Assembly: GCA_016188785.1 (NCBI GenBank) | Contig: JACPHD010000001.1 | Coordinates: 26,300 to 90,299 of the forward strand | From: Parcubacteria group bacterium | Lineage (GTDB): Bacteria > Patescibacteriota > Patescibacteriia > Patescibacteriales > GWC2-42-12 | Direction: 5' to 3' | Length of the DNA stretch: 64,000 bases | Shown here: positions 22,893 to 45,473 of the stretch, in pieces | Position numbering within the stretch: the first letter of the stretch is position 1 | Layout: each line of letters starts with the position of its first letter | Position numbers and translations under genes: made by a program | The notes under the pieces: generated by a model | Told to the model about the DNA's origin: nothing | The model's database searches: none | The model's input: only the letters and a program-made list of their open reading frames with translations

Positions 22893-23295
22893 CGCCGTTA
22901 TTATTTAAAATTTCAGCCGCCCTAATATTATTCTCATTAAGAATTTCTAGTAATGTAATTTCATCAATATCCTTATCTAGCAAATCTAATTTTAGTTTTG
23001 TAGAGAAAATAACATACTCTTTAATGCTTTTTTCAAAAGTCTTTTCTGATAAATTATCATAATTTGTTTTTGCATGTGCTTGAATTATCCACTCGTCATT
23101 TCCTATTATTTCTTTATAGACTAAATTTATAAAATCTTCGTTTTCTTTTGGACGGTTAAGTTTTTTTAATAAATCTTTTTTTATACCATTCCATTTGTCT
23201 AAAACATCTGTTCTTCCTTTATTTTTAGATAAAACAAGACCATCATTTTTTAAATCATAAAAGACAACTTTGTTGTTATTATGAGGTTTATTTGT
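22876..23295 (-). pseudogene. Met-less 140-codon ORF, in-frame continuation of the upstream RM gene after a TAA
   Basis: Translation after the TAA at 23296-23298 reads TNKPHNNNKVVFYDLKNDGL...NNGDDYED with no stop until it overlaps the S-subunit start. Confidence 0.5.
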
Positions 23296-24858
23296 TTAAA
23301 AAACTGCTATGGCGGTATGCGTTGAGGCATTTGGTTGAAATAACTCAATCGGCATATTAATAACATATTTTAATGTGTGTTTTGATAAAATTCTATTTCT
23401 ATCAATATCATCTTTAAAATATGTGGAGAGCGGGGCAATTATAACCCCGTATCTACTAGAATTATCTAGCATCTTTTCTAAAAATTGAATTTCTTTTTTA
23501 GTGGGATTTTTTTTATTATCTTTACCGCCATACGGAGGATTTACAAATCCTATTGTAGGTTTATTCGGTAACTTATTTAAAATATTGTTTGTTTCATTTG
23601 AGAAAAAATCTTCATTAAAAATTTGAGATTTTCCATCTCCCCTAAAAAGCATGTTAGAAATCGCCAATGAATACATTGTACTACTTTTTTCAAGTCCAAT
23701 CAGTTGTTTGGTTTTTATATTTTTAATTCTTTCTTTTTTATCTGATAAATTTGATTTTTCAATTTCATCAACAAGTTTATTCATTCCCGCGATTAAAAAC
23801 GCCCCCGTTCCGCAAGCCGGATCAAAAATTACATCGTTTGTCTTAATATCAATTAATTCTGTAAATAAAGTAGTGATATGATTTGGAGTTAATATAATTC
23901 CTTTTTTTACACTTGTTATCCCCGCGTATCTTAAAAATTCTTCATAAAATTTTCCTATTATATCGTATGAAGTTTTTTTATCAAAAAGAGGTATTACTTT
24001 TTCTTCAAGTTCTTTTAAAATATCTTTTAAAATATTTGTGGAATTTAAATCATTATCAGTTTTTATAAAAGTTAATTCATTGGTTAATACCTCTATCTTA
24101 TTTTTATCAATTTTCTCACTTTCTAAAATATCGCTTATGGTCGTAGGCATATTTCTAATAATTGTTTGGGTATTCCATAAACTATAACTATTTTTAAAAT
24201 CTGACCCGCTATCTTTTGGGTATAGACAAATCATTAAAGCGCTTAAAAGCACCGGTCTTTTTTGAGAATCTAAGTTTCTTAACAACCTATTGATTTCGCT
24301 TGATGATTTTGAAATATCATTAGATATTTTTTCTAAATCAATGTTCTCAAAAAAAGCTAAATAATCTTCTTCGTCTAAAATTTCACTCTTACTAATATTT
24401 TGAATAAAGTTATTTTCAATAATATAAGTATCAAGTCTATGATTATATTCATCATTAATATCTCCAGAAAAAGCAATTCCTACTATTTTCCAATTTTTTA
24501 AATATTTTTTTATTGTTTCTTTTTCTTGACTTAATTTTTCGCTTGTGAAAAAAGATAAATAATGTTTTATTCCGTCAACGGCAAAATCCACAGGATCATC
24601 TTCATTTTTAGAAACATGGTTTTTTATTTGATCTTTATTTTCAATTAAAATCAATAATTTTTTTATTTCATTTACATAAATCAAATCCGGATAACCATGT
24701 TTTCCAGTTTCTTTTTTGCTTGTTTTATCTAAAATTTCTTGAATATATTTATTATTTTGTTTCTGGACATTCCAGCTATTAGTATACCGCCTATTCTCTT
24801 TAATAAAATTAAATAGATTAATATCTGTTTTTGCTTCGTTTTTTCTCAAATTTGCCAT
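23296..24858 (-). CDS. Type IIB/IIG (BcgI-A-like) restriction-modification subunit: N-terminal PD-(D/E)xK nuclease plus gamma-class N6-adenine MTase
   Basis: 'YPDLIYVNEIKKLLILIENKD' (PD...ENK). MTase motif I 'FDPACGTGAFLIAG', motif IV 'NPPYGG'. Confidence 0.7.
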   Translation of the reverse strand: MANLRKNEAKTDINLFNFIKENRRYTNSWNVQKQNNKYIQEILDKTSKKETGKHGYPDLIYVNEIKKLLILIENKDQIKNHVSKNEDDPVDFAVDGIKHYLSFFTSEKLSQEKETIKKYLKNWKIVGIAFSGDINDEYNHRLDTYIIENNFIQNISKSEILDEEDYLAFFENIDLEKISNDISKSSSEINRLLRNLDSQKRPVLLSALMICLYPKDSGSDFKNSYSLWNTQTIIRNMPTTISDILESEKIDKNKIEVLTNELTFIKTDNDLNSTNILKDILKELEEKVIPLFDKKTSYDIIGKFYEEFLRYAGITSVKKGIILTPNHITTLFTELIDIKTNDVIFDPACGTGAFLIAGMNKLVDEIEKSNLSDKKERIKNIKTKQLIGLEKSSTMYSLAISNMLFRGDGKSQIFNEDFFSNETNNILNKLPNKPTIGFVNPPYGGKDNKKNPTKKEIQFLEKMLDNSSRYGVIIAPLSTYFKDDIDRNRILSKHTLKYVINMPIELFQPNASTHTAIAVF

Positions 24859-24945: not shown

Positions 24946-25560
24946 TTAAGCGAATTTTCTAATCACTCCCCTGACCACTCCCTGAATTAGCGGGTCGGCC
25001 GCGTAAATCGGCTTCATGGCTGAATTAGCCGGCTGCAGTCTGATGCGCGCCTGCTCGCGGTAAAATTTTTTCAAAGTGGCATAAGCATTGTTTAAAAGCG
25101 CTACCACCACATCGCCGTTTTGCGGCGACGGATTGCGCTCCACGATTACATAATCGCCGTCTAAAATTCCGTCTTCAATCATTGATTCGCCTTTAACTTT
25201 TAAAACGTAACTATTGGCGCTGTCGGTTACGAAATCAGCCGGCACGGCGATCGTGTCTTGTTCTTCAACCGCTTCGATCGGTTCGCCGGCTGTTATCAGG
25301 CCGACTAACGGCAATTCTAAACTGGCGGTCCAATTCACGGCCGTGGGAATAATTTCAATTGAGCGCGCTTGATTAAACGAAGTTTTTAGCATCTGCTTTT
25401 TCTCCAAAGTTTGCACATGCGCGTGAATCGTGGCCGGACTGGCTAAATTAAAATGCCGGCCGATTTCTCTTAAGCTGGGCGCGTAGCCGTTATCGCGCGT
25501 AAATTCAGTTATAAAATCCAGAATTTGCCTTTGTCTTTTGGTTAAATTGTTGCCCATATA
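24946..25560 (-). CDS. lexA: LexA repressor (HTH plus S24 peptidase)
   Basis: 'ITAG' cleavage site, Ser in 'KGESM', Lys in 'ATLKK'. Start taken at MGNNLTKRQRQIL. Confidence 0.85.
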   Translation of the reverse strand, partial: YMGNNLTKRQRQILDFITEFTRDNGYAPSLREIGRHFNLASPATIHAHVQTLEKKQMLKTSFNQARSIEIIPTAVNWTASLELPLVGLITAGEPIEAVEEQDTIAVPADFVTDSANSYVLKVKGESMIEDGILDGDYVIVERNPSPQNGDVVVALLNNAYATLKKFYREQARIRLQPANSAMKPIYAADPLIQGVVRGVIRKFA

Positions 25561-25597
25561 GTTTATGTTAAAAATTAGTTTTCCACAATACTCTTTT

Positions 25598-25626
25598 ATC
25601 ATACACGAACAAAATACGAAAGTCAA
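25598..25626 (-). promoter_or_regulatory. lexA promoter: TTGACT-N17-TATGAT with direct repeat TTCGTA-N5-GTTCGTG in the spacer (putative operator)
   Basis: Read on the minus strand: TTGACT TTCGTATTTTGTTCGTG TATGAT. Confidence 0.55.
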
Positions 25627-25727
25627 GAGCTTGCGCTATTTTGACTATTTTTTTTATTTATGCTTTAATAAATATTAACTGGCTCTGTCACCTTTTAACT
25701 TCAAAACTCTTAACAGGGGGATGAAAA

Positions 25728-31556: not shown

Positions 31557-31590
31557 AAATTATTGTGTTAATTTGCTAGTATTTTATGAA

Positions 31591-31760
31591 TTAGCTCGAA
31601 CTGAATTCAAAAAAAGGTTTTAAACCAGCTTTTAAAAGCAAGAAATTCATTCACGGGCAAAGCCCGACTTTAGGCGACCGCGCCCGCCTTGACGCCGCAA
31701 GGCAGTCGGGCGGGTTTCAAGTTTTGGCGGCAAATTTTTTTAACACTAGGGCTTTTCAGT
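31591..31760 (+). repeat. ~170-bp repeat family, copy A
   Basis: 'GAATTAGCTCGAAC(T/C)GAATT(C/T)AAAAAAAGGTTTTAAAC...' is shared with 34360-34580 and, inverted, 39745-39972. Confidence 0.7.
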
Positions 31761-32315: not shown

Positions 32316-33660
32316 CGGCGCGTGTCAATGGTTTGCACTCGTCCATGTCATACTTAACACCAGGGAGTGCAAAATATGTTAAACCATAGTAATATCTGTA
32401 GATTTGGCCATTTAAGCCAAACTAAAGCTACAGATATTATGCAAACACAAGCTGAAATAAAATTAAACCCTTTGCGGTGTTATCTTTCGCCGGAGGCGAA
32501 AAAAAGATTAAAATGGATGTATCTTGTAAAATACGAATGTGCCAATAATATTTCGCAGGCGGCCAACCGCCTCGGCATTTCTCGCGTCTGGCTGTCTCAA
32601 ATTCACAGCCGCTGGCAGAAACATCGCGAAGACCCCAGGAGTCTGGAGCCGGAGTCAAAAGCGCCGCATGACACGAGCAACCGTAAACGGATTGATGAAA
32701 AAGTTGAAAATAAAATTGTTGAAATCAGAAAAAAATACCAGCCCTGGGGCAAAGACAAATTATCGGTCATTTTAAAAAGGGATTATCAATTAATGGCCGG
32801 AGCCTCCACCGTCAATCGCTATCTCGTAAAACATAACCTGATTGATCCGAAACTATCCGAGAAAAATAAACTGGCCTGGCAGAGAAAAAAAGAAAAGGCA
32901 AATCTGAAATTTAAAATGAGGCCGCCGGCGGTAATCAAAGATTACAAACCCGGGGCGCTCTTAGAAAAAGACATGAAATTAGTCCTGAAAATGGGTATAT
33001 TCACTAACATGAATAAGCATCGCGCTAAAGAAAACTTCTGGTATCAGCATACCTTAATTGATTCTTTTACCCGCGTCAGAGCCGTTGGTTTAGCCGAGGA
33101 TTCTAACAGCCAAACAGCGGTAGCGGTTCAGGAGCAGGCGGTAAGCCGCCTGCCCTTCGCCATCGCGGCGATAAACAACGACAACGGCGGTGAGAATGAA
33201 AAAGATTTCTCTGTTTATCTGGAAAAAGAAAAAGTGGCTCAATTTTTTTCCCGCGCCGGCACGCCGACAGATAACCCGCGTGTTGAACGCTCTCATCTAA
33301 CGGACGAACTGGAATTTTACGCCCAAGGCAATCTGCATAAAAATTTTAACGATCAGGCTAAGGCAATATCAGAATGGGAACACACTTACAATTTCGTCCG
33401 GCCGCATCAGGCTCTCGGCTATCTAACACCCATGGAATTTTACAGGCTCTGGCAGAAAAACCCCGAAGAGGCCCATCGGATTAAAAATAAATACAGCGCT
33501 TATCTTAAAAAACAAAGTCGTCGTTTGGCTAAATCCAGACAAATGAAAAACAAGGAACAAATTGAAAATCTAATGAAATTTATTGATAAAAAATTGTCAA
33601 AATCTAATTCTTAAAAGTGTTAATTATGTTCGTGGACTTGAACATGTTATCAATGTTAAA
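32316..33660 (+). mobile_element. IS481-like insertion sequence (approximate ends, imperfect TIRs)
   Basis: Left end 'TGTCAATGG...CATACTTAACAC' versus right end 'GTGTTAATTATG...CATTGATAACA' gives partial inverted identity. Higher GC than the flanks. Confidence 0.45.
32367..33614 (+). CDS. DDE transposase (rve integrase core, IS481-like) with N-terminal HTH
   Basis: 'ISQAANRLGISRVWL' HTH. rve core '...NDNGGENEKDF...', 'RPHQALGYLTPMEFY'. Confidence 0.8.
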   Translation: MQNMLNHSNICRFGHLSQTKATDIMQTQAEIKLNPLRCYLSPEAKKRLKWMYLVKYECANNISQAANRLGISRVWLSQIHSRWQKHREDPRSLEPESKAPHDTSNRKRIDEKVENKIVEIRKKYQPWGKDKLSVILKRDYQLMAGASTVNRYLVKHNLIDPKLSEKNKLAWQRKKEKANLKFKMRPPAVIKDYKPGALLEKDMKLVLKMGIFTNMNKHRAKENFWYQHTLIDSFTRVRAVGLAEDSNSQTAVAVQEQAVSRLPFAIAAINNDNGGENEKDFSVYLEKEKVAQFFSRAGTPTDNPRVERSHLTDELEFYAQGNLHKNFNDQAKAISEWEHTYNFVRPHQALGYLTPMEFYRLWQKNPEEAHRIKNKYSAYLKKQSRRLAKSRQMKNKEQIENLMKFIDKKLSKSNS

Positions 33661-33716: not shown

Positions 33717-34286
33717 TTATTTTATCCTGAAAATTTCCTTGATTTTATTAACATTTTCTTTGGCCGCGAAAAAAGCTTCAATAAAAGCTGATTTAGGTAT
33801 CATTCTGCCTTCTAAGGCTTCTCTCTTTTTCGTAAAATCCCAGGCAATTATTGGATCCTGGTATATATAGAATATCACAACCGGCCGCGAATGGTCTAAC
33901 GATCTTTTAACATTTTTATAAGAAACATCATACTTGGAAAACGTCCCATCAACTATCGCCTCTAATTTCTTGGCGAGAATATGGTCATACAGCTTTTCAA
34001 CTCCAATTGAAGAAGCACCTTGGACAACATCAGAATTCTTACCATTATATTGAGGCATAATTTCTTTGATTTCATCGGCGTCGATCCTAACTAATTTCTT
34101 ATCCAATATTTTGGCTAAATTTTTAGAGAATTCGGTCTTGCCCGCCCCCGGCGAACCGGCCATAAAAATAGTAACTGGATTTACAATCGATTTATAAAAA
34201 TCAGGCTTAGCAAATTTTTCAATTAACAACTTTCTATTTTTCTTTATAAATTTTTTTGCTTCTTCCGCTTCTTTAATATTTATCAT
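33717..34286 (-). CDS. Zeta-toxin/AAA_33-like P-loop kinase
   Basis: Walker A 'MAGSPGAGKT'. 189 aa. Confidence 0.55.
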   Translation of the reverse strand: MINIKEAEEAKKFIKKNRKLLIEKFAKPDFYKSIVNPVTIFMAGSPGAGKTEFSKNLAKILDKKLVRIDADEIKEIMPQYNGKNSDVVQGASSIGVEKLYDHILAKKLEAIVDGTFSKYDVSYKNVKRSLDHSRPVVIFYIYQDPIIAWDFTKKREALEGRMIPKSAFIEAFFAAKENVNKIKEIFRIK

Positions 34287-34359
34287 GCTTTTATTATATC
34301 ATAAAATAATAAAAATATTAAAGAAACCAAAATATCACTTTATATTGGGAGCTTTGCTC

Positions 34360-34580
34360 AAGTTGGCTGGCATTTTACGAATTAGCTCGAACCGAATTTA
34401 AAAAAAGGTTTTAAACTATCTTTTAAAAGCGCCTCTGCCGGCAGGCAGGCGCCCCCGCTTTTAAAAGCAAACATTTTCCCGCGGGCAAAGCCCGATTTCA
34501 GGCGATTTCAAGTTTTTCTGCAGGCGAAAGCCCTCTCCGCCCCGCTTCTGCTGGGCGATTTGGCGGCAAATTATTTTTTG
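34360..34580 (+). repeat. ~200-bp repeat family, copy B (left flank of the R-M module)
   Basis: Begins 'AAGTTGGCTGGCATT' (like the tRNA-Gln 3' end). Core is near-identical to the inverted copy C. Confidence 0.75.
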
Positions 34581-34613: not shown

Positions 34614-36131
34614 TTAATAATTGATAATTGGAAAACCTCTTGAACTTAAGATATTATTGAACTCTTTTCGAAATAAGAATACCGCGTTTTTTCTTTCTTT
34701 CTTGTAAAGAGTATTCACAAAAGGGTCAAAATCCCAATTCGTGTATTCTGGCGTAGCAAGTTTACTTTTCATAAATTTTTTAATACCAACAGCCTGCATT
34801 ATTTGCACTATTTCCTCGAATTCACGAATACCACATAAGGAATAAGGCATTTCTTCTAACCACTCTTTAGGCAATCCATTTTGTCTTAATTTTTCTATGA
34901 CTTTATTTTTTATTTCTTGGTAAATAGGATCTGCAAATGAATACCACTCCTCTAATGTCAAAATAACTGGATAAATTTCCCTTTTTTTGTCATATGGAAA
35001 ACTTGGATACTGTTTATCTATATGATCTTTTATGGTTTTATAAACCTGAACTATCGCATCAGAAATCTTTTCAAGTTCTTTGTCTAATAATAAAGTATCA
35101 TTTAATTCTATTTTTGCTGGTACAATTAGCCTTTTTGTCTTACATTCAATAAATAATGCGGCATCTTTTTCGTCTAATATCCAATCAACCGTATTTTTTT
35201 TATTTTTCTTCGGCCCATATTCTTCTTCGGGATAAATTGTCATTTTCTTATTGGCTTTATTTAATACCTCGCCAACATATTTCTGGAAAGTAAATCCAAA
35301 AGGTTTGTCAAAATCTTTTTCGCGACAAATCTCATAATAAATTCCGCTGGTAAACCGCCAATATAATAAAGTAGTCAATGGACAAAAGTAAACATTATCT
35401 CCTTTTAATTTATTTTTTATTATTGGGTATAATCTTAACATATAAGTATTATAAGCAAATTTTTCATCAACTGAGTGTTCACTTTGTATAATTTTTTTAA
35501 AATCATCCAGATCAATAGAAATTATGTTAAATAATTTTTTTATCTCATCATTAGTTATCCCTTTTATATTCGTACTAAATGGTTCTTTGATGATAAAATT
35601 ATTCTTGTAATGACCAAGTAGTGATGCGCCCATTAAAAATAAATTTTCGTAGTGTAAGCCGACTTTTTTATATAATATTTTATCAATGTCCAGTTCGTTA
35701 AAAATTCTATAATATCTATAAAAATACATGAGATTAATATTTAATTGCCACGGGAACTGTCTATGCGCAAGTCTAAACAATTCCTTTAAAACATTATTTT
35801 TATCAACATGACATAATTTATTTTCAATTTCCTTGATTTTATTTATTGCGCCAATAAAGTAATTCCATTTTTTTAATGTTTCCAATCCCTTTTCAGTATC
35901 TTGCGAATTAAGTATAATTTCACGCAATAAAAGTTCTAATTCCCATTGGTAAATCCTTTTTTCAGGTAAAGTTTTTGCATTAATAAATTCTGGTATAGTC
36001 TCGATATCGTTAGGAAACGAATTTCCAAATTGCAGATGGTTCGAATAAGCCCATATTACACAAAATGATTCATTTATGCTAAGTTTTCTTAAATGATTTT
36101 TCAATGGTTTGTATAATGAGTAATTATCCAT
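34614..36131 (-). CDS. Hypothetical protein with a possible PD-(D/E)xK motif (LDEKDAALFIECKTK)
   Basis: 505 aa, divergent from the LexA-MTase gene with an 88-bp shared promoter region. Confidence 0.4.
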   Translation of the reverse strand: MDNYSLYKPLKNHLRKLSINESFCVIWAYSNHLQFGNSFPNDIETIPEFINAKTLPEKRIYQWELELLLREIILNSQDTEKGLETLKKWNYFIGAINKIKEIENKLCHVDKNNVLKELFRLAHRQFPWQLNINLMYFYRYYRIFNELDIDKILYKKVGLHYENLFLMGASLLGHYKNNFIIKEPFSTNIKGITNDEIKKLFNIISIDLDDFKKIIQSEHSVDEKFAYNTYMLRLYPIIKNKLKGDNVYFCPLTTLLYWRFTSGIYYEICREKDFDKPFGFTFQKYVGEVLNKANKKMTIYPEEEYGPKKNKKNTVDWILDEKDAALFIECKTKRLIVPAKIELNDTLLLDKELEKISDAIVQVYKTIKDHIDKQYPSFPYDKKREIYPVILTLEEWYSFADPIYQEIKNKVIEKLRQNGLPKEWLEEMPYSLCGIREFEEIVQIMQAVGIKKFMKSKLATPEYTNWDFDPFVNTLYKKERKNAVFLFRKEFNNILSSRGFPIINY

Positions 36132-36153
36132 AATATTTATAAAATTAAATGTT

Positions 36154-36182
36154 TTGACTTCGGTAAATCTTCGGTATATACT
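36154..36182 (+). promoter_or_regulatory. Promoter of the LexA-MTase gene: TTGACT-N17-TATACT with direct repeat CTTCGGTA-N3-CTTCGGTA in the spacer
   Basis: Read directly; same architecture as the lexA promoter at 25598-25626. Confidence 0.6.
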
Positions 36183-36219
36183 ATAAATATAACATGTGGA
36201 TAAATAATGTCAAATAACT

Positions 36220-38712
36220 ATGCCTACTCTAACGAAGAGACAAAAGCAAATTTTAGACTTCATTCGTGAGTATATTAATAAACATAATATATCCCCTACC
36301 TTTGAAGAAATTAAAAAACATTTTAGATTATCTGCGCTATCTACCGTACATCAGCATATTGAAGCATTAATCAAAAAGGAATTTTTAGTAAAAAATAATA
36401 ACTTATCAAGAGGACTCGAGTTAAAAACAAAAGGGGAAGACATAGTTGAAATTCCTTTACTCGGCGTGATTGCTGCTGGTCAACCGATCGAAGTCTTTGA
36501 AGAACACGAGACTATAACCGTTCCGCGCACCAATTTATCTAACGCCGGTGAACATTTCGCATTGAAAGTACAAGGCAATTCCATGATTGATGAAGGAATT
36601 TTTAATGGCGATACTGTAATTATCAGAAAACAAAATACGGCCAGCAACGGAGAAACTATAGTGGCTATAATAAATGGCAATGAAGCGACATTAAAAAAGA
36701 TATATAGATTTCAAAATGGTTTTAGGTTACAACCGGCGAACCCAGAAATGAAACCGATCTTTGTAAAAAGTTTGCTTGTCCAAGGTAAAGTTGTAAGTGT
36801 TATAAGAAACTTTGAAAACAATACTATCATTGAACAAATTTCTAGCAATGAAGAATATATTGTTTCCAAAGAATATTCGGAAAAAGGTATAAATTTAGAT
36901 CAGCTCATAAGTGAGCTGGTAAATTTTAGAGATATTATAATATTTAAATACGGCTTTAATACAGCAGATGATTTTTTAAAAACACAAATTATTGACGGCT
37001 TAATTCTACAAGAAATTTTTAAGCACATCGCAAATAAAAAAAATGTAAATACTAACATCCAAGCAATAAACGAAATACTGAAAGAACTAAACCTAAATCA
37101 TGTAGAATTTACAAAGGATGATATAAAAATTTTTGGGGATATTTTAAAAAAATACAATTTTAGTAGCTGCGATGATGATGTGCTTGGTTTTATATATCAA
37201 AGCATTAGGCCCCAGAGTGGCAGAAAAGATGATGGCCAATATTACACCCCCAAAAAAGTAGTTAAATATATTTTAAATAATGTAAAAATAAATTTAAAAG
37301 AAAACAAAAATTTAAAAATTTTAGACCCAGCCTGTGGATCCGGACAATTTTTGCTGGAAACATACGATATTTTGTATAACCAATACAAAACAATGGGTGA
37401 AAAAAACGAAGCGGACATCCATTACAAAATCATTAATAATCACTTACTTGGCTTTGATATAGATAAAATCGCCGTGAGTTTGGCTAAACTTAATTTATTT
37501 CTAAAATCAAAAGGTACGTATACAGAAAAATTTAATATTTTAATAACAAATACGCTTAAGCGAGATTCTAACTTACTAGAACCAAATCAATTGGACAAAT
37601 ACAAAGGCAGTATTGATTTTGTAGTGGGCAACCCTCCCTGGGGAGCAAATTTAAATGAAGAACAAAAAAAATATTATAAAAAGCATTATGATATAGGAAA
37701 AAATGGATTAAACACATTTACTCTTTTTATTGAACGTGCTTTTGATTTTCTTAAAAAAAATGGAAAATTAGGATACTTAATACCTGAGGCCTATCTAAAA
37801 ATTAAAGTGCACCAACTTTCTCGCCTGCAAATATTAAATAGAGCCAAGATACTACTCCTTGGAATTAGCGGGGATATATTTCAAAAAGTTTACGCTCCTT
37901 GTTTAGTAATAATTTTCCAACAAGAAAAAGATAAAACAGCCAGGGAAAAAAATGAAATAAATATAGAAAATGGAGTTTTCAACGGACATGAAGAACATAA
38001 GACGATAATTCAAAAAAATTTTGAAAAATCCGCTGAAAATATTTTTAACATCAACCAAGTCGGCGAAACTGAAGAAATACTAAACCATATCCTTGAACAA
38101 AAAAATTATTATCTTAAAGATAACGCATTATTTATATTAGGTATCGTAACCGGTAACAATAAAAAGTATCTAATCCGAGAAAAGAAAGACAATAAATATT
38201 CCCCTATTATAGTGGGCAAAGATATAAGCAAATATAAAATCAACTTCAGCGGCAATTATTTTATCTATGACAAAAACATACTCCAGCAAATTGCTCCGAA
38301 AGAATATTATACCGTACCTGAAAAAATTATTTACAAGTTTATTGGAGAAAAAATCACATTTGCTTATGACGATAAACAATATTTTACTTTAAACAATGCT
38401 AATGCATTCGTGCCTAAAATAGAAAAAATAAAAACCAAATATATTTTGGCCTTATTAAATTCAAAATTGATGCAATTTTTTTACAATAAATCTTTTTTTA
38501 CCGTAAGAGTACTCCGTGGCAATTTAGAAAAATTGCCTTTAGTTTACGCGGATCAAAAAAAACAAGAACAAATTATCAGCCTAGTTAATCAAGCAATAAA
38601 TTCAGAAGAAGATAGAATACTAAAAATAATTTTAGACAAAATTGACGACGAGGTATTCTCTCTTTATAAAATATCAAAAAAGTGGCAACAATATATTTGT
38701 AAAGAGACATAA
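36220..38712 (+). CDS. Fusion protein: complete LexA (HTH plus S24 peptidase) fused to a gamma-class N6-adenine DNA methyltransferase with a C-terminal TRD
   Basis: aa 1-200 are LexA-like ('VIAAGQPIE', 'QGNSM', 'ATLKK'), a close paralogue of the lexA at 24946. Then 'LDPACGSGQFLL' (motif I), 'GNPPWG' (motif IV) and ~300 aa TRD. No stop or frameshift between the parts. Confidence 0.8.
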   Translation: MPTLTKRQKQILDFIREYINKHNISPTFEEIKKHFRLSALSTVHQHIEALIKKEFLVKNNNLSRGLELKTKGEDIVEIPLLGVIAAGQPIEVFEEHETITVPRTNLSNAGEHFALKVQGNSMIDEGIFNGDTVIIRKQNTASNGETIVAIINGNEATLKKIYRFQNGFRLQPANPEMKPIFVKSLLVQGKVVSVIRNFENNTIIEQISSNEEYIVSKEYSEKGINLDQLISELVNFRDIIIFKYGFNTADDFLKTQIIDGLILQEIFKHIANKKNVNTNIQAINEILKELNLNHVEFTKDDIKIFGDILKKYNFSSCDDDVLGFIYQSIRPQSGRKDDGQYYTPKKVVKYILNNVKINLKENKNLKILDPACGSGQFLLETYDILYNQYKTMGEKNEADIHYKIINNHLLGFDIDKIAVSLAKLNLFLKSKGTYTEKFNILITNTLKRDSNLLEPNQLDKYKGSIDFVVGNPPWGANLNEEQKKYYKKHYDIGKNGLNTFTLFIERAFDFLKKNGKLGYLIPEAYLKIKVHQLSRLQILNRAKILLLGISGDIFQKVYAPCLVIIFQQEKDKTAREKNEINIENGVFNGHEEHKTIIQKNFEKSAENIFNINQVGETEEILNHILEQKNYYLKDNALFILGIVTGNNKKYLIREKKDNKYSPIIVGKDISKYKINFSGNYFIYDKNILQQIAPKEYYTVPEKIIYKFIGEKITFAYDDKQYFTLNNANAFVPKIEKIKTKYILALLNSKLMQFFYNKSFFTVRVLRGNLEKLPLVYADQKKQEQIISLVNQAINSEEDRILKIILDKIDDEVFSLYKISKKWQQYICKET

Positions 38713-38716
38713 ACGA

Positions 38717-39349
38717 TTAAATAATTGCCGAGAATAAATTTCTTGGTTCGGTAGCAGATTCTTTCATCTGCTCGTAACCTGGGTGCCATTGATAAGTCGC
38801 ATTTGAACCTGTGGTACTGTGCTGTGGAGAAAATTTTGCGCCAAAAATCGGTTTGCCGGCCCTAATATCTCTTTTATTTAAAACCCAATAAAATTTTCCC
38901 TCTGGCGTTATTCCTAAAAAAATATAGTAATTAATCCTTGGGTCTTTTAAACGTATTTGTTCAAAAATAAACTTATTGCCTTGATAAATAGTGGCTGTTT
39001 TAACTTCTATATATTTATTCTTTTTCAATTCTAAAAAATCAGGATTCAATTGATTTTGGTTTCCTCTCTCGAACTTTTTAAGTGCATCTTTACCAGCAAC
39101 ATTCTCGTAATCGGCTCGAAATAAATCCTCTCCGGCACAACCTATTTGGCGTGAACGCAAAAGTTTAAATCGTAAATACAAATCAGCATCCTCAACTTCT
39201 TTGGTTATAGAGATACCTTTTGTCATGGCGAAACCCAAAACAAATTGATAGTTACCTTCATTAATTTTATCTTTCAATAAATCATCCACATCAACGCCTT
39301 TCAGGTGAGCGTCATAAAACCGATTAAATATTTCTTCAATAGTTTTCAT
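38717..39349 (-). CDS. Putative type II restriction endonuclease (PD-(D/E)xK: NPDF...YIEVK)
   Basis: Convergent with the MTase (4-bp gap). Start overlaps the upstream XRE gene (ATGA). Confidence 0.45.
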   Translation of the reverse strand: MKTIEEIFNRFYDAHLKGVDVDDLLKDKINEGNYQFVLGFAMTKGISITKEVEDADLYLRFKLLRSRQIGCAGEDLFRADYENVAGKDALKKFERGNQNQLNPDFLELKKNKYIEVKTATIYQGNKFIFEQIRLKDPRINYYIFLGITPEGKFYWVLNKRDIRAGKPIFGAKFSPQHSTTGSNATYQWHPGYEQMKESATEPRNLFSAII

Positions 39350-39564
39350 AAAAAATAGCTAATTTGTTTTTTATATAAACCCGCAAAATTTTTTAATTCA
39401 ATAATATCTATTCTCTGCTCACCGGCCTCAACTTTAGAAACATAAGACTGAGGTTTTTTTGTTTTTTCCGATACCTCTTTCTGGGTTAAACCCGCATCTA
39501 ATCTGGCCTGTTTAAGGAGTCCTATAACTCGTTGATATTCACTTGTTCGTATTGTTTTAGGCAT
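39346..39564 (-). CDS. XRE-family HTH protein, likely R-M controller (C protein)
   Basis: 72-aa HTH_3-like 'LTQKEVSEKTKKPQSYVSKVE', overlapping the downstream nuclease gene. Confidence 0.6.
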   Translation of the reverse strand: MPKTIRTSEYQRVIGLLKQARLDAGLTQKEVSEKTKKPQSYVSKVEAGEQRIDIIELKNFAGLYKKQISYFL

Positions 39565-39577
39565 TTATATATTATAT

Positions 39578-39607
39578 ATTCAAATCAAGAATATTCAAAG
39601 TTTGAAT
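39578..39607 (-). promoter_or_regulatory. Tandem C-box-like palindromes ATTCAAAGTTTGAAT (perfect) and ATTCAAATCAAGAAT (imperfect) upstream of the C gene
   Basis: Read directly, 14-45 nt upstream of the XRE start codon. Confidence 0.55.
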
Positions 39608-39744: not shown

Positions 39745-39972
39745 GCCGATATTTTTTACAGGCTCGGCGCCTGTCCCGTTGCATAACGGGAGCAGTTTTT
39801 TAAAGCCGGGCTTTGCCCGCGGGGAAATTTTTACCCCGTTGAATAACTGGGGATTACTTTTAAAAGCGGGGGCGCCTGCCTGCCGGCAGAGGCAGAGGCG
39901 CTTTTAAAAGATAGTTTAAAACCTTTTTTTAAATTCGGTTCGGATTAAATCATACATTGCCAGCCAATTTGG
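39745..39972 (-). repeat. ~200-bp repeat family, copy C (inverted; right flank of the R-M module)
   Basis: The reverse complement matches copy B. Terminal 'CCAGCCAATTTGG' is an inverted copy of the tRNA-Gln 3'-end region 'CCAAATTGGCTGC'. Confidence 0.75.
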
Positions 39973-39988
39973 AATAAGCCTAAAATTT

Positions 39989-40017
39989 AAAGCCAAACCC
40001 CATTCGGGTTTGGCTTT
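39989..40017 (-). terminator. Rho-independent terminator downstream of tRNA-Gln
   Basis: Minus-strand read: AAAGCCAAACCCGAATGGGGTTTGGCTTT followed by a T-run. Confidence 0.6.
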
Positions 40018-40039: not shown

Positions 40040-40113
40040 TGGCTGCGGGACCTGGATTCGAACCAAGATAACATCCTCCAGAGGGATGTGTCCTACCATT
40101 AGACGATCCCGCA
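40040..40113 (-). tRNA. tRNA-Gln (anticodon CUG)
   Basis: Minus-strand sequence TGCGGGATCGTCTAATGGTAGGACACATCCCTCTGGAGGATGTTATCTTGGTTCGAATCCAGGTCCCGCAGCCA. U1-A72, T-loop TTCGAAT, anticodon loop CTCTGGA. 3' half nearly identical to the E. coli tRNA-Gln 3' half. Confidence 0.75.
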
Positions 40114-40116
40114 AAA

Positions 40117-41715
40117 TTACCCCACCACCTTTCCGCCAAACGTCTTTAACAGATTGTCAATCATATTACCCGGCTCGCCTTGCGCCGGGGCCGCCGAGGC
40201 CTCTTTTTTCGCGGCTAACGGCTCATCTGAAACTAATTTATTAGCCGCCACTTCTAAATTTTCATCAATCACCGCTTCAATCATAATCGGCGCGCCATAA
40301 ACCTGATGCAAAACTTTTTCTATGACATTTTTTATGGCGGCTTCGCTTACCCGGTCTTTATGAAATTTATATTTAAAAGCTAAACAAAGCTGATTGCCGC
40401 TTAAATCTCGCGGCTGGCAGACGCGCAAAATAAATGATAAAGAATGATTATACTGCTTGACCTTGGCTAAAACTTCGTTCCATTTTTCCTGGATTTGGCT
40501 ATTAGTAAAATTTACCGGCTGGCCGGCTTCGGCTGATTGCTTAACTTCTATTTTAGCCGCGGCCGGCTGACTTTTAGGCAAACTGAATTTTGAGCCGGCG
40601 GAAAAACCCGGGACCGCGGCTTGAGCCGTGCAAATTTCGGCGATGGCCATTTCTAAAACTAACTGCTGGATAAAATCAGCTTTTAATTCAGCCGAAACCC
40701 TAATGAATTTTTCTAAAAATTTAAGCGCCTGTTCAACATTTAAATCCGCGGCCAGCTTATTTATCTTTAGTTCAAAGGTTTCGCCCAGCTCCAGGGATAA
40801 TTTATTTACCAGGCCAGGGCTTATTTTCATGAGCATAAGCTTTCTTAAAATTTCAATCGTGTCTTTAACAAAGGTTTTAAGATCAACGCCGTCGTCCATT
40901 AGTTTATTGACTAGCCTGATGCCGCCAGCCGCGTCTTTTTTTATTAAAAATTCCAGCAAATTTATAACTTCATTTAAATCCGAGCGCGGGATGACTAAGT
41001 CAGCTTCGGCTTGCGTTATGTCCGCGCCGCCGATAGCGATAATTTGACCGAGCAGGCTTTCCGCGTCCCGCATATGGCCGTCGGCCTGGCGGGCGATCGC
41101 TTCTAAAATACTTTTATCAACCTTTATTTTTTCCGCCTGAACTATATAAGTTAATTTTTTAACCGCGTCGTTAACCCCGATTCTTTTAAAATCAAAGCGC
41201 TGACAGCGGGAAATTATCGTAGCCGGCACTTTATGCGCTTCAGTCGTGCATAAAATAAACACCACGTTGGCCGGCGGCTCTTCAATCACTTTTAAGAGCG
41301 CGTTAAAAGCCTGAGCCGAGAGCATGTGCGCTTCGTCAATGATAAAAACTTTATATTTTGAGCGCGACGGCGCCACGTGCGCGCTGGCGATTATGTTATC
41401 CCTTACATTATCCACGCCAGTGTTGGAAGCCGCGTCAATTTCAATAATGTCCAAAGCCCGGCCCTGGGCAATTTCCCGGCAGCTTAAGCATTTATCGCAA
41501 GGATCGGCCGTATCACTTTTGCGCTCCAGACAGTTGATTGATTTAGCCAAAACTCTGGCTAAAGTGGTTTTGCCTACGGCCCGCGGCCCGCAAAACAGAT
41601 AAGCATGAGCCATTTTATCGGTCTTAATTTCCTGTTCCAGAGTTATTTTTATGTGATTTTGCCCGACCACTTCGCTAAAATTCTGGGGCCGGTACTTGCG
41701 GTATAAGGTTGACAT
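40117..41715 (-). CDS. dnaX: DNA polymerase III subunit gamma/tau
   Basis: 'YRPQNFSEVVGQ', Walker A 'GPRAVGKTT', zinc module 'CDKCLSCREI', 'FIIDEAHML'. Confidence 0.9.
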   Translation of the reverse strand: MSTLYRKYRPQNFSEVVGQNHIKITLEQEIKTDKMAHAYLFCGPRAVGKTTLARVLAKSINCLERKSDTADPCDKCLSCREIAQGRALDIIEIDAASNTGVDNVRDNIIASAHVAPSRSKYKVFIIDEAHMLSAQAFNALLKVIEEPPANVVFILCTTEAHKVPATIISRCQRFDFKRIGVNDAVKKLTYIVQAEKIKVDKSILEAIARQADGHMRDAESLLGQIIAIGGADITQAEADLVIPRSDLNEVINLLEFLIKKDAAGGIRLVNKLMDDGVDLKTFVKDTIEILRKLMLMKISPGLVNKLSLELGETFELKINKLAADLNVEQALKFLEKFIRVSAELKADFIQQLVLEMAIAEICTAQAAVPGFSAGSKFSLPKSQPAAAKIEVKQSAEAGQPVNFTNSQIQEKWNEVLAKVKQYNHSLSFILRVCQPRDLSGNQLCLAFKYKFHKDRVSEAAIKNVIEKVLHQVYGAPIMIEAVIDENLEVAANKLVSDEPLAAKKEASAAPAQGEPGNMIDNLLKTFGGKVVG

Positions 41716-41778
41716 GAATATATATTAAACTTGTTTAAATTAAAAGGCAAACTTTTTAGATTTTTGCCAAATAAAAAT

Positions 41779-41994
41779 TTTCATTGCGAGGAGCGTCTTC
41801 TTTTGTCATTCCGGCCTTGAGCCGGAATCCCCGCCCGCCTCGCCTTGCGGCTCGCATGGCGGGCGCGGCAGATTAAGCCCGTAGTTAGTTTGGTTTACTC
41901 TGATGATTATAAATTCAGAGGTTCGTGGCGCTTAAACCTGGATTGCGGGTCAAGCCCGCAATGACAATTAAAAAATTATTGCTCGCAATGACAA
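41779..41994. mobile_element. MITE-like element TTTCATTGCGAGG...GCTCGCAATGACAA (family copy 2)
   Basis: Nested palindromes GTCATTCCGGCC/GGCCGGAATCC and GGATTGCGGGTCAAGCCCGCAATGAC. Confidence 0.6.
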
Positions 41995-42001
41995 TTTAAT
42001 T

Positions 42002-42646
42002 TTACTCCGCCTTTCGCACAATATTCTCTACCGCCGCCCACTTTGATTCGCCGTTTTTAGGCACTAAAACGACCACTTCGTCGCCGCTTTCGCCTTTATA
42101 ATAAGTTACGCTAGCGGTTAAAAGTCGCCATCTTTTGCTATCGGCCAGAGCAAAATATTCGCCGCCTAAAGAACGCTCTAAAATGCCGACCAGACGCGCC
42201 CGTTCAATCGGACCGATCTGCTTATAAACGAAAGTACCGGTAGCGGTGATGGTAAGCTTTAAAATATCACCTTCAACTAATTTTGATTTTGAAGCATAAT
42301 TGGCCGGCACGCTGTACTGCTTGCCGTCCGGGCCGATCATATTTTCGCCGTCAAACACGCCTTCAATAATGCGGGCTTGATCAGAATTTTCTTCGCCTGA
42401 CTGAAAATTTTCCTCGCTTAACTGGGCAATGCTGATAGCCGCCTCGTCTTCGGCTGATAAATTGTCGGCTAAAAGCTGAATTAAACGTTCATTATTTTCT
42501 TTGATGTTAGCTAATAATTTTTTTGCTAAAACCATTTTTGATTTAGCAATAATAATATTATCTTCTTTTTCAACCGGCCGCTTAAGCGGCTCGACGTCAA
42601 TTTCTAAAGTTAAATCATCGTTTAAATTTTTGTTTTGATCTGGCAT
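42002..42646 (-). CDS. Hypothetical protein
   Basis: 214-aa ORF downstream of the VirD4-like gene; no motifs recognised. Confidence 0.4.
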   Translation of the reverse strand: MPDQNKNLNDDLTLEIDVEPLKRPVEKEDNIIIAKSKMVLAKKLLANIKENNERLIQLLADNLSAEDEAAISIAQLSEENFQSGEENSDQARIIEGVFDGENMIGPDGKQYSVPANYASKSKLVEGDILKLTITATGTFVYKQIGPIERARLVGILERSLGGEYFALADSKRWRLLTASVTYYKGESGDEVVVLVPKNGESKWAAVENIVRKAE

Positions 42647-42708
42647 AAATTTTGTTTTATTAGTTATTTAATTTGTCATAATCTTATCTAAAAAATTATA
42701 ATTTGTAA

Positions 42709-42763
42709 ACCCCGTTAGAAAAAGTGCTGCTTGCCCCGCTTAGAAATTTATTTCTAACGGGGT
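42709..42763. repeat. Inverted-repeat element ACCCCGTTAGAA...TTTCTAACGGGGT (copy 4) upstream of the 214-aa gene
   Basis: Read directly. Confidence 0.65.
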
Positions 42764-42773
42764 AAAGACAGGC

Positions 42774-45320
42774 TTAAAATTCAGCTTTTTTCGCCCGCCT
42801 CATAATCTCCGCTTCAATTATGCTCCGGTCCTGGCCGTATTTAAGCCGGGACAAAGTTTTAATTTTAGCGGCCGCGTCCAGGCGCTCAATTCCGGGTAAG
42901 GGCCAAATGGTTGACATGGAAAAAGGCCGCGTGGCCGTATTGTCTATTAACAACTTCACATAAGCCGTGTATTTTTCAATGTTAATCAAATCATACTGGT
43001 TAAAAACTGGCGCGAATTCTTTAGCCATGATTTCGGCGTCTTCGGAGCCGATTTTAAATAATAGCCAGGTGCCGACATTGCCGAAAACCGCGTTTTTAAT
43101 GGACGTGTCCTGGCCTTTGACTAACTGGCCCAAATATTGATGCGCGATAATTAAGTTCAAATTATATTTTCTGGCCTCGCTTAAAATTGAATTAATCGAG
43201 TCAGTGGTAAAATTCTGAAACTCGTCTATGTATAAATAAAAATCTAGCCGTTTTTCTTGTGGCATATCCGTGCGCGACAAAGCCGACATTAAAATTTTGC
43301 CCACTAGGATCATGCCCAATAGATGAGCGTTCATCTCGCCAATTAAGCCTTTAGACAGATCAACCAACAAAATTTTCCTTGAGTCCATAATATCGCGCAA
43401 ATTAAACGAGCTATCCTGCTGGGCGATAATCGGCCGCATGGTATCATTAGAAATAAACGAGGTTAATTTTGAAGTTACATACGGCACGACATTGGCTAAC
43501 GCCGCTTCGCCGCCGGCCTTTTCCGCCTCTTTGCGCCAGAAATCAACCACGGTCGGGTCAGAGCATTTTTCTAATTTCATTTTCCTGAATTCCGGATCGG
43601 CTAAAACTTTCGGTATTTCCATTAAAGTTGAACCGCTGGCCGGATCGCTCATAACTAGGAGCATGGCGTTTCTCATATACTGCTCAAAAATCGGCCCGCC
43701 GGTCGCTTTCAGATCGTATAATTTATCAAAAATTTTTATCATCTCATTGATGACGAAAGTTTTTTGCTCCGGATAGCGCGCGTCAAATTCCAATAAGTTT
43801 AAAGCCAACGGCCGGCTAATATCGGCCGGCGCGAATAAAATAACGTCGCCAGCGCGTTCCGGCGGAATACGACTGATGATGTCGCTAATTAAATCGCCGT
43901 GCGGATCAATGACCGCCACGCCTTCGCCGTTAGCAATATCTTGAATCGCCATGGAAGCCAGTAAAACCGATTTACCCACGCCGGATTTGCCGATGATATA
44001 ACTATGCCGCCGCCGGTCTTCGCGCTTCATTTTTATTTCCGTGGTTACGCCGCGGTAAATATTATTGCCTAAAATTATGCCTTGGTCAGGCATGTTGGAT
44101 GGCGCGGCCGAATATTTAGCCATGAGCCATTGGATATTGGGCGTTTCCGCGCTCGCGAGCGGCGGATGATAAAGGCTGGCTAGTTCTTCGGTATTTAAAA
44201 TAAAACCGAGCCTCGGCTTAAAGCGCCGATAAATAAAATCTTTGATTAAAAATTTCTGGATTAGCTGATTATAAAACGGCAATTTATTGGTTAAAATATT
44301 GCCATACTGATAATAATTATACTGGCTGAAAGCGCCAATTAGGTTGTTTAAAAAAACTTTGGCCCGCGGCAAGTCTTTAGCGCTGGCCACCAGTCTAATA
44401 TTCGTGTCCAATCCGGCTTTAGAATTTTTTTCTTCAATCAATTTTAAAACTTCCTGTTCCATAGCGGTTAAGCGGTTTTCTTTTTCTAGTTTGCCCGGTT
44501 CGGTTTTAGGCTGGGCCGCTTTAGTTAAATCGCCTAAAAAAGTTAAAATTCTGGCCAGCGAATTGACTTTTAAGCCGTCAGATAATTTCTTACCCTGATT
44601 AACCGCCGAAACTACGCGATTGACTTTATTGTGCCAGCCGGGTTTAGCGCTTCTAACCACATATTGGATGGCCAGGCTTTCGTCACGGCCTAATTTTGAC
44701 ATGGCATTAACCAAAGAATTTAACGGATCAGCTTCCATCTTATTGTAAGTTTTCAAGGGAAATAAAAAACTGCGCTTGGTCTTAATAAAACCGGCCACGG
44801 TTTGGCCGTGGGCGCTAAAAATATTATAGTCAGGCACAACTTCCAAAACCGCTTCCGGATAATAGGCTTGGATTTGCTGTTCCAGATAGCGGCCCATGGC
44901 GCGCGGCGCGATCGCGTAAAAGGAAATATATTTATGATCAGCCACTATTTCAAAAGAAAAATGATCGTTCCGGCCTAACAGCCAGGAAAAATTTTTATGC
45001 CAGGCCTCGGCTTTTAAGCCGCCGATGGCTTTAAAAATAGTTTCGCCGCGCGCGATATCTTCGCGCAATTTCTGCAGATAATTTTGCGTGTTCGGCTGCT
45101 GCTTTTCTTCAGGCTTTTCTTTGGGCAGGCGCAAAAGATAAATTATATGCTCATGGTATTTGGAGTTGAGCGACCAATATAATATCAGCTTGCGCGCGAG
45201 CAGAGCCAGAACGGCCAAAATCAGACCGGCCAATAAAAAAATCAGCCAGCCGTCAATATTAACGTTAAAGCTTAAATTGTTTATGACATTATCGTTTTGA
45301 CCGGATAAACCATAATCCAT
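42774..45320 (-). CDS. VirD4/TraG-like type-IV-secretion coupling ATPase
   Basis: N-terminal TM. Walker A 'IIGKSGVGKS', Walker B 'LYIDEFQNF'. ORF-track N-terminus (MTSVF) is probably contributed by the MITE end; start taken at MDYGLSG. Confidence 0.65.
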   Translation of the reverse strand: MDYGLSGQNDNVINNLSFNVNIDGWLIFLLAGLILAVLALLARKLILYWSLNSKYHEHIIYLLRLPKEKPEEKQQPNTQNYLQKLREDIARGETIFKAIGGLKAEAWHKNFSWLLGRNDHFSFEIVADHKYISFYAIAPRAMGRYLEQQIQAYYPEAVLEVVPDYNIFSAHGQTVAGFIKTKRSFLFPLKTYNKMEADPLNSLVNAMSKLGRDESLAIQYVVRSAKPGWHNKVNRVVSAVNQGKKLSDGLKVNSLARILTFLGDLTKAAQPKTEPGKLEKENRLTAMEQEVLKLIEEKNSKAGLDTNIRLVASAKDLPRAKVFLNNLIGAFSQYNYYQYGNILTNKLPFYNQLIQKFLIKDFIYRRFKPRLGFILNTEELASLYHPPLASAETPNIQWLMAKYSAAPSNMPDQGIILGNNIYRGVTTEIKMKREDRRRHSYIIGKSGVGKSVLLASMAIQDIANGEGVAVIDPHGDLISDIISRIPPERAGDVILFAPADISRPLALNLLEFDARYPEQKTFVINEMIKIFDKLYDLKATGGPIFEQYMRNAMLLVMSDPASGSTLMEIPKVLADPEFRKMKLEKCSDPTVVDFWRKEAEKAGGEAALANVVPYVTSKLTSFISNDTMRPIIAQQDSSFNLRDIMDSRKILLVDLSKGLIGEMNAHLLGMILVGKILMSALSRTDMPQEKRLDFYLYIDEFQNFTTDSINSILSEARKYNLNLIIAHQYLGQLVKGQDTSIKNAVFGNVGTWLLFKIGSEDAEIMAKEFAPVFNQYDLINIEKYTAYVKLLIDNTATRPFSMSTIWPLPGIERLDAAAKIKTLSRLKYGQDRSIIEAEIMRRAKKAEF

Positions 45321-45328
45321 AAAAACAC

Positions 45329-45473
45329 TTGTCATTGCGAGGAACGTTATTTTAATTTGTCATTGCGGGCTTGACCCGCAATCCAGGACGATGGAAATAT
45401 TGACCAACGTGGTTTTTCTGGATTCCTGCCTGCGCAGGAATGACGAAAGAAATTTGCTCGCTCGCAATGACAA
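45329..45473. mobile_element. MITE-like element TTGTCATTGCGAGG...CTCGCAATGACAA (family copy 3)
   Basis: Inner hairpins GTCATTGCGGGCTTGACCCGCAATCC and GGATTCCTGCCTGCGCAGGAATGAC. Confidence 0.6.

Follow-up and report, generated by a model that had tools for sequence, protein, structure and literature searches.

The DNA analysed here is a window of 64,000 nucleotides (nt) from the chromosome of a Parcubacteria group bacterium (assembly GCA_016188785.1, contig JACPHD010000001.1, positions 26,300 to 90,299), and all coordinates below are those of this window unless a related locus is named. A segment between 34.6 and 39.6 kb carries a predicted Type II restriction-modification (R-M) system, consisting of a LexA-methyltransferase (MTase) fusion of 830 amino acids (aa), here called M (36220-38712, plus strand), a 210-aa PD-(D/E)xK protein, R (38717-39349, minus strand), and a 72-aa controller of the XRE/HTH_3 type, C (39346-39564, minus strand). 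A fourth gene (34614-36131, minus strand), divergent from M, encodes a 505-aa protein resembling the antiphage nuclease GapS1.

Domain searches located a LexA module at the N-terminus of M (36220-36795; Pfam LexA_DNA_bind 1e-13, Peptidase_S24 2.3e-29), with a winged helix-turn-helix (HTH) in residues 1-65 and an S24 peptidase domain in residues 79-192. Residues 1-198 scored 179.3 bits against the lexA equivalog model TIGR00498 (cutoff 110.95); the predicted cleavage site is A86-G87 (36475-36480) and the catalytic dyad is S121/K159. The second part of the protein is a gamma-class N6-adenine MTase (37174-38712, plus strand; residues 319-774; Pfam N6_Mtase 5.5e-28, Eco57I 2.9e-22) with the motifs DPACGSG and then NPPW, and with a TaqI-like C-terminal specificity domain at 38203-38541 (Pfam TaqI_C 2.6e-28). 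The PADLOC model MTase_II matched M at 4.5e-106, and its matches in PDB included the adenine MTases 8cxz/7lni (7e-19) and M.TaqI (7e-8). Judged by its sequence, M joins in one reading frame a gamma-class adenine methylase and, ahead of it, a full LexA that comprises HTH, Ala-Gly site, dimerisation domain and Ser/Lys autopeptidase. The name given to this protein by NCBI is ‘transcriptional repressor LexA’.

R lies tail-to-tail with M across a gap of 4 bp, in which no terminator was found. The protein contains the motif LNPDFLELKKNKYIEVKT, and in an alignment of 21 homologues residues P103, D104, K117, E130 and Q131 were invariant and E115 nearly so. An AlphaFold2 (AF2) model of R (predicted local distance difference test, pLDDT, 88.2; predicted template modelling score, pTM, 0.83) was compared with PDB using Foldseek and matched DpnI, Eco15I-N, NhoI, EcoRV, Hjc, I-Ssp6803I and HinP1I, while the PADLOC model REase_II gave a weak match (3e-4). 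All of the 22 close homologues came from Patescibacteria-type metagenomes; an exhaustive profile search of 1.8 billion cluster representatives returned six matches, none of them informative, and comparison of the R profile with the R candidates of two more distant fusions (loci L008 and L010 of our collection of related loci) was not significant. In every related locus with enough sequence, and in differing chromosomal contexts, R was found tail-to-tail with the LexA-MTase gene. On its motif, fold matches and linkage to M, the 210-aa protein is the restriction endonuclease of the R-M system, with a predicted activity.

The TGA stop codon of C (Pfam HTH_3, E 1.5e-11) overlaps the ATG of R in the tetranucleotide ATGA (39346-39349), an arrangement of translational coupling. 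The two genes share the promoter TTGAAT-16-TATAAT (39571-39598, minus strand), which has the same layout in L004, L091 and L095 and whose -10 hexamer ends 6 nt before the C start codon, so that the C mRNA is probably leaderless. Two candidate C-boxes overlie this promoter: a distal one (39593-39607), the perfect 15-bp palindrome ATTCAAAGTTTGAAT, one arm of which supplies the -35 hexamer, and a proximal one (39578-39592), the imperfect copy ATTCAAATCAAGAAT (plus strand), which fills the spacer. Palindromes of the 7+1+7 form were counted 14 times in the window against 9.7 ± 3.3 expected, and the chance of one falling within the 76 nt upstream of C was ~1.4%. The palindrome alone is therefore not beyond chance in this AT-rich window, and the case for its function rests on comparison of related loci.

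This comparison covered nine distinct loci, the near-identical L093 and L094 being counted as one, of which five carry C (the window, L004, L091, L093/L094 and L095); it is missing from L001/L003/L096, L005, L006 and L092, and in these loci R has a promoter of its own. In one of them (L005, ~7960-8000, upstream of R) the spacer of the R promoter contains two tandem AACGTT hexamers (TAACGTTTTAACGTTT). All six loci with a C gene, five of them distinct, had the two-box layout, and the four distinct loci devoid of C all lacked it. In L093/L094 both arms of the distal box are changed symmetrically, from ATTCAAA/TTTGAAT to AT(G)CCAA/TTGGAAT, and the right arm of the proximal box is changed likewise, which is the pattern expected of a dyad bound by a dimer. 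PDB matches of C included C.BclI (1.9e-3) and C.Esp1396I (4.9e-3), solved C proteins spanning E values of 2e-3 to 0.8, and the PADLOC model Control_protein matched at 1e-3. By layout and by the co-occurrence of boxes and gene, it is supported that the XRE protein and the two boxes behave like a C-protein/operator pair; in sequence, C resembles solved C proteins only weakly.

Much of what had been noted earlier on this DNA from its letters thus stood. The PD...EVK motif read in the 210-aa protein is present and its residues are conserved, and the restriction-endonuclease fold suspected for this protein was recovered in the AF2 model and its restriction enzyme matches in PDB. A 72-aa XRE HTH gene coupled by ATGA to the 210-aa gene was likewise confirmed by the HTH_3 match, the perfect 15-bp palindrome and its adjacent imperfect copy do lie upstream of that gene, and the two-box layout is kept in all C-bearing related loci. 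The LexA domain proposed for the MTase was recognised by both TIGR00498 and Pfam, and the idea of a module with two regulators, C for R and a LexA domain on M, is supported.

To place the fusion among its relatives, species-representative genomes were scanned with the LexA domain, which yielded at least 560 relatives; the best 80 loci (L011-L090), from 80 different assemblies, were analysed. Long MTase fusions accounted for 77 of these 80, and the fusion partners belonged to at least four MTase families, namely C5 cytosine, N4/N6 beta-class, Dam-like and gamma-class (including an M.Eco57I-type variant). Most fusions had a convergent abutting open reading frame (ORF), and the convergent endonucleases were of the MvaI/BcnI (12), Bsp6I (6), HNH (5), BsaWI (3), AccI, AlwI, TaqI, EcoRI and NgoFVII types. 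The presence of recognised restriction enzymes as convergent neighbours indicates that the fusions are M subunits of Type II systems. Equivalents of A86, G87, S121 and K159 were invariant in all 80 loci, at LexA-domain identities down to ~52%. A repeat with an 11-bp period was found at nearly all lexA or lexA-fusion promoters, and across the 80 loci its half-site co-varied with the LexA recognition helix: HQH with TTCGGT, HEH with TTTCGGG, and NHY or SHY with TTCTAG, while STAH-type helices went with TTTCTA or TTTCGA. Two loci carried a lexA of stand-alone size followed on the same strand by another gene, a DpnI-family methyl-dependent endonuclease in L045 (3498-4883) and a NOV_C-domain protein in L035 (3220-4617), which shows that restriction-type genes stand behind lexA even where there is no fusion.

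In the window, the M promoter (P_M) reads TTGACT-17-TATACT (36154-36182, plus strand), at a position conserved in related loci. Inside its spacer lies the direct repeat CTTCGGTA-AAT-CTTCGGTA with a period of 11 (36158-36176, plus strand). The pattern CTTCGGTA-N3-CTTCGGTA occurred only once in the window, and each related locus had a single copy, placed at the M promoter in every case. Direct-repeat LexA motifs of the form GTTC-N7-GTTC are established (PMC8565304), and the LexA of Patescibacteria has been reported as a direct-repeat binder (PMC7739468). The repeat in the P_M spacer is a candidate for an autoregulatory LexA operator. A regulon search of the window found no LexA operators other than those at its two lexA promoters, the second of which is described below.

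A second promoter, TTGACA-16-TATATT with a TG extension (36186-36213, minus strand), opposes P_M and is aimed at the GapS1-like gene; at 11/12 matching positions it was the best promoter match in the region. Antisense sigma-70 promoters of at least 10/12 facing the lexA promoter were detected in 48 of the 80 loci versus 6% of shuffled sequences, the forward and antisense -10 hexamers usually being ~3 bp apart, and a conserved AAGTCAA near the start codon corresponds to the -35 hexamer of the antisense promoter on the opposite strand. The same face-to-face geometry is the promoter-competition layout of Ecl18kI, where competition between P_R and P_M is combined with autorepression of the methylase through its N-terminal HTH (PMC3874152). 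No conserved partner class was found among the genes upstream of the fusions, in which defence genes (Vsr, ThsB-TIR, DUF4238, PIN and SspH) were mixed with housekeeping genes.

The spacer of the opposing promoter also contains TGTGGATAA (36195-36203, plus strand), which reads on the opposite strand as the DnaA-box consensus TTATCCACA. This 9-mer, searched for as TGTGGATAA/TTATCCACA, is present in only two copies in the window. Among the 80 regions of 130 nt upstream of lexA or lexA fusions, 58 had an exact match (0.2% of shuffles), against a background of 12 matches in 511 kb of flanking DNA. It was usually placed just 5' of the -35 hexamer and was constant across LexA helix types, so that its reader is probably a host factor and not LexA. 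The element suggests a DnaA input into the expression of lexA or of the methylase in Patescibacteria.

The 505-aa protein matched the NCBIfam model for GapS1 (NF047931) at E 1.8e-26 over 370 positions, with a score of 93 bits that does not reach the curated family cutoff of 320, which points to homology and not to membership, i.e. to a distant sister family of GapS1. The same model was matched by 40 of 41 homologues, and D316, E329 and K331 of the C-terminal PD-(D/E)xK site were invariant in the 41 sequences. In its AF2 model (pLDDT 92.7) the protein resembled PD-(D/E)xK defence nucleases according to Foldseek. The family comprises more than 260 homologues of ~500 aa from several phyla, and the neighbourhood of one distant homologue was devoid of R-M genes. 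GAPS1 itself, the GMT-island antiphage system 1 of Vibrio parahaemolyticus, is likewise a single protein with a C-terminal PD-(D/E)xK site; its defence residues D313/K328 (bioRxiv 10.1101/2023.03.28.534373) are spaced by 15 positions, as are D316/K331 here. Unlike GAPS1, the present protein belongs to a host of the candidate phyla radiation (CPR) and its gene is positioned opposite a putatively LexA-controlled promoter; the trigger of GAPS1 is a capsid protein.

In L001, L004 and L005 the same M/R pair has no 505-aa gene next to it. In L019 and L097, on the other hand, a protein 84-88% identical to it again stands opposite a LexA fusion, with intergenic DNA ~95% identical, and in L097 (4715-8518; also in L098) the LexA domain is 62% identical and precedes an unrelated beta-class N6_N4 methylase with a convergent R of the TaqI family. 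This arrangement argues that the GapS1-like gene moves together with the control region, unlinked from the R-M payload, and that payloads are exchanged behind LexA. On sequence and structural model, the 505-aa protein is a predicted stand-alone antiphage nuclease and no subunit of the R-M system.

Under-representation of short palindromes in host DNA was used to look for a recognition site. TCGA was the most under-represented 4-bp palindrome, with 30 occurrences observed against 96.8 expected (observed/expected ratio, O/E, 0.31), and it also ranked as the most depleted in a control locus bearing RE_TaqI, where its O/E was 0.22. Among the loci compared (L001, L004, L005, L009 and L097), the ratio was 0.12-0.49 in those with other R families, and the avoidance signal is therefore not discriminating. 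TCGA is possibly the recognition site of the R-M system.

The GC content of the 34.6-39.6 kb module is 0.28-0.34, compared to 0.42-0.45 in flanking genes such as dnaX. Inverted repeats of ~170 nt bound the R-M/GapS1-like segment on both sides: the left one (34338-34510, plus strand) is an inverted copy of the right one (39787-39992, minus strand), with 87% identity over 118 nt, and the right one adjoins a tRNA-Gln gene (40040-40113, minus strand), which was the only hit of the Rfam and tRNA scans of the window. The low GC relative to the flanks and the bounding inverted repeats beside tRNA-Gln mark the segment as an island. The repeat is rich in GC hairpins and exists in three copies of 120-200 nt (31570-31690, 34338-34510 and 39787-39992), with none elsewhere in the window. 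After the copy at 31570-31690 come a truncated NYN-like ORF and the genes for an rve transposase (32367-33614) and a zeta toxin (33717-34286). On the other side, the neighbours of the island are dnaX and a gene for an 853-aa TraG/VirD4-like ATPase (40117-45335). This dnaX/TraG-type synteny is repeated in L004 (2481-6711) and L005 (3229-6820), so that this chromosomal position recurs as the site of the LexA-M/R unit among related organisms.

The window also contains a stand-alone lexA of host type (24946-25557, minus strand; 203 aa; GC 0.476), whose product is 44% identical to the fused LexA domain. Its promoter (~25590-25630) holds the direct repeat TTTCGTATTTTGTTCGTG (25605-25620) along with a TGTGGAAAA element, and TTCGK-N6-TTCGK sites were found only twice in the 64 kb, once at each lexA promoter. 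The presence of this gene makes the fused LexA an extra, dedicated, island-borne paralogue with a diverged operator. That the fusion could serve as the sole LexA of the cell was considered and rejected for this genome, given the host lexA at 24946-25557. Eighty-seven nucleotides behind the host lexA begins a cassette of low GC (0.26; 21894-24858, minus strand) with an N6_Mtase ORF and a Type I S-subunit ORF, the former interrupted by an in-frame TAA that is followed by HsdM-like sequence in the same frame. The cassette has the appearance of a foreign M/S unit, possibly decayed, that adjoins the 3' end of lexA but is not fused to it.

From these observations we propose the following scheme of regulation. 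In a naive cell without the repressor, P_M would fire and the genome would become methylated. The LexA-M dimer would then occupy the direct repeat between the two hexamers of its own promoter and limit M synthesis, a step that parallels the role of the N-terminal HTH in the SsoII, EcoRII and MspI methylases. R would come later, because the leaderless C-R operon would need a build-up of C on the two C-boxes. RecA activated by self-restriction or by phage attack would trigger self-cleavage of LexA at A86-G87, and release of the HTH would derepress M, so that methylation would go up when DNA breaks appear. The strong opposing promoter would compete with P_M and would tie expression of the GapS1-like gene to the occupancy of the same operator. 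Binding, cleavage, the direction of regulation and the recognition site are all elements that we infer from anatomy, conservation and precedent.

Other readings of the same genes were weighed against this scheme. The earlier note had counted the 505-aa PD-ExK candidate as part of the R-M module, in which case all four genes would form a single module with this protein as a second endonuclease or as a subunit. The protein does have a PD-(D/E)xK core and is divergent from M over a shared 88-bp control region, the position held by R in SsoII/Ecl18kI-type systems (PMC3874152). However, its homology to the stand-alone GapS1 family, the distant homologue found outside any R-M context, its absence from the M/R neighbourhood of L001, L004 and L005 and the pairing of its relative with an unrelated MTase in L097 have largely refuted this assignment, which was not borne out and which we regard as improbable. 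An SOS role of the LexA module could also be dispensed with, if the module were a dimerisation or DNA-tethering domain or a plain autorepressor that undergoes no RecA-triggered cleavage. Autorepression by HTH-MTases requires no cleavage (PMC3874152), and the S24 domain doubles as a dimer interface; the invariance of Ala-Gly and Ser/Lys in 80 of 80 loci across at least four MTase classes is nevertheless hard to explain without selection for self-cleavage, and this possibility is in our estimate rather unlikely.

Conversely, the fusion might be a general SOS regulator, its methylase an orphan epigenetic or cell-cycle enzyme, and the 210-aa gene unrelated to both, which would agree with the NCBI name ‘transcriptional repressor LexA’, with the DnaA-box-like element at most such promoters and with the origin of the best 80 loci from 80 different assemblies. 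We find this quite implausible, since the window also has a stand-alone lexA whose GC is host-like and whose operator differs, while the fusion has the GC of the island, restriction enzymes are the usual convergent neighbours of such fusions, and the operator has no second copy in 64 kb. The last reading would detach the XRE gene and the 210-aa nuclease from the methylase as an independent toxin-antitoxin pair. Considering that the nuclease stays with LexA-M in loci devoid of the XRE gene, and that in these loci XRE is never found without the nuclease, this is hardly credible, even though a small XRE gene overlaps the nuclease gene, a weak NCBIfam match is to HipB/Y4mF-type antitoxins, and the nearest solved structures of the XRE protein are uncharacterised XRE proteins.

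Several observations weigh against the proposed scheme itself. Fold matches of R were weak (TM-score 0.34-0.38, or 0.3-0.4 in round figures), which makes it a divergent PD-(D/E)xK enzyme, and it had no match to any Pfam family, NCBIfam and PDB sequence searches also being empty. C is nearer to the uncharacterised XRE structures 3eus and 3f6w than to canonical C proteins; its two boxes both lie over the core promoter, a position more in keeping with repression than with the textbook order of activation and then repression; and the design can do without C, which roughly half of the related loci lack. Upstream of other fusions the genes are of mixed kinds, some of them housekeeping. Finally, a repressor sitting at +3 to +22 of the opposing transcript may shut the opposing promoter off and not free it, and the GapS1-like gene could be regulated in either direction. 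With these points taken into account, we consider it fairly probable that the segment is a defence island gained by horizontal transfer in the chromosome of a member of the Parcubacteria (Patescibacteria/CPR), in which a Type II R-M system and a GapS1-like nuclease form two independent nuclease defences around one LexA-type control region, regulated in the way proposed.

Each component of this arrangement has relatives among characterised systems. As in the C-protein systems PvuII, AhdI, Esp1396I and BclI, a small HTH_3 gene just ahead of R is coupled to it and is itself preceded by a pair of adjacent dyad operators, and C is apparently leaderless; as in Esp1396I, R is convergent with M. Unlike in those systems, similarity to solved C proteins is weak, the two boxes (box sequence ATTCAAA-N-TTTGAAT) cover the -35 hexamer and the spacer, and roughly half of the sister loci do without C (the roles of C proteins are described in PMC3874152). 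The HTH-methylases M.SsoII/Ecl18kI, M.EcoRII, M.MspI and M.ScrFIA likewise have an N-terminal DNA-binding domain and an operator in the M promoter. Unlike them, the fusion described here carries LexA in its entirety, dimerisation domain and intact autoproteolytic switch included, its putative operator is a direct repeat, and the same LexA module is joined to at least four MTase families; the opposing promoter, unlike that of Ecl18kI, faces the GapS1-like gene and not R. Direct-repeat LexA repressors of Alphaproteobacteria and Patescibacteria share with the fusion equivalog-level domains, intact catalytic residues and (G/T/C)TTC repeats of 11-bp period (PMC8565304, PMC7739468). In contrast to other LexA proteins, this one is covalently joined to a DNA methylase, is an island-borne paralogue, and has a diverged half-site with no other target in the 64 kb.

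No description of a LexA-methyltransferase fusion in CPR was found in the searchable literature, which did not include the dedicated study of Patescibacteria LexA by Sanchez-Osuna et al. 2017 (Environ Microbiol 19:3465), and a prior description is possible. C control and autorepression by HTH-methylases are already known, while that literature yielded no complete LexA joined to MTases of several families and combined with a conserved bidirectional control region. The public label ‘transcriptional repressor LexA’ means that surveys of CPR SOS regulons and surveys of CPR defence systems could both misread these fusions.

The survey raises a broader and more tentative possibility, to which we give somewhat less than even credence: Type II R-M systems of Patescibacteria may routinely be wired to RecA/SOS through a portable LexA cassette, which is joined in frame to any methylase at hand and behind which MTase and endonuclease payloads are swapped. 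Such a cassette would consist of its own promoter, the direct-repeat operator, the opposing promoter, the DnaA-box-like site, and the LexA HTH and autopeptidase. If this holds true, DNA breaks caused by self-restriction or by phage would cleave the fusion and raise the methylase, amounting to an autoimmunity-sensing feedback loop for restriction systems, and nearby defence genes, that of the GapS1-like nuclease among them, could come under the control of the LexA hub as well. R-M systems must keep methylation ahead of restriction, and the known solutions are C proteins, methylases with an N-terminal HTH, and antisense RNA. A methylase carried on a complete and apparently cleavable LexA would add a signal-responsive layer to these, in which DNA damage, self-inflicted damage included, would be sensed and protection raised.

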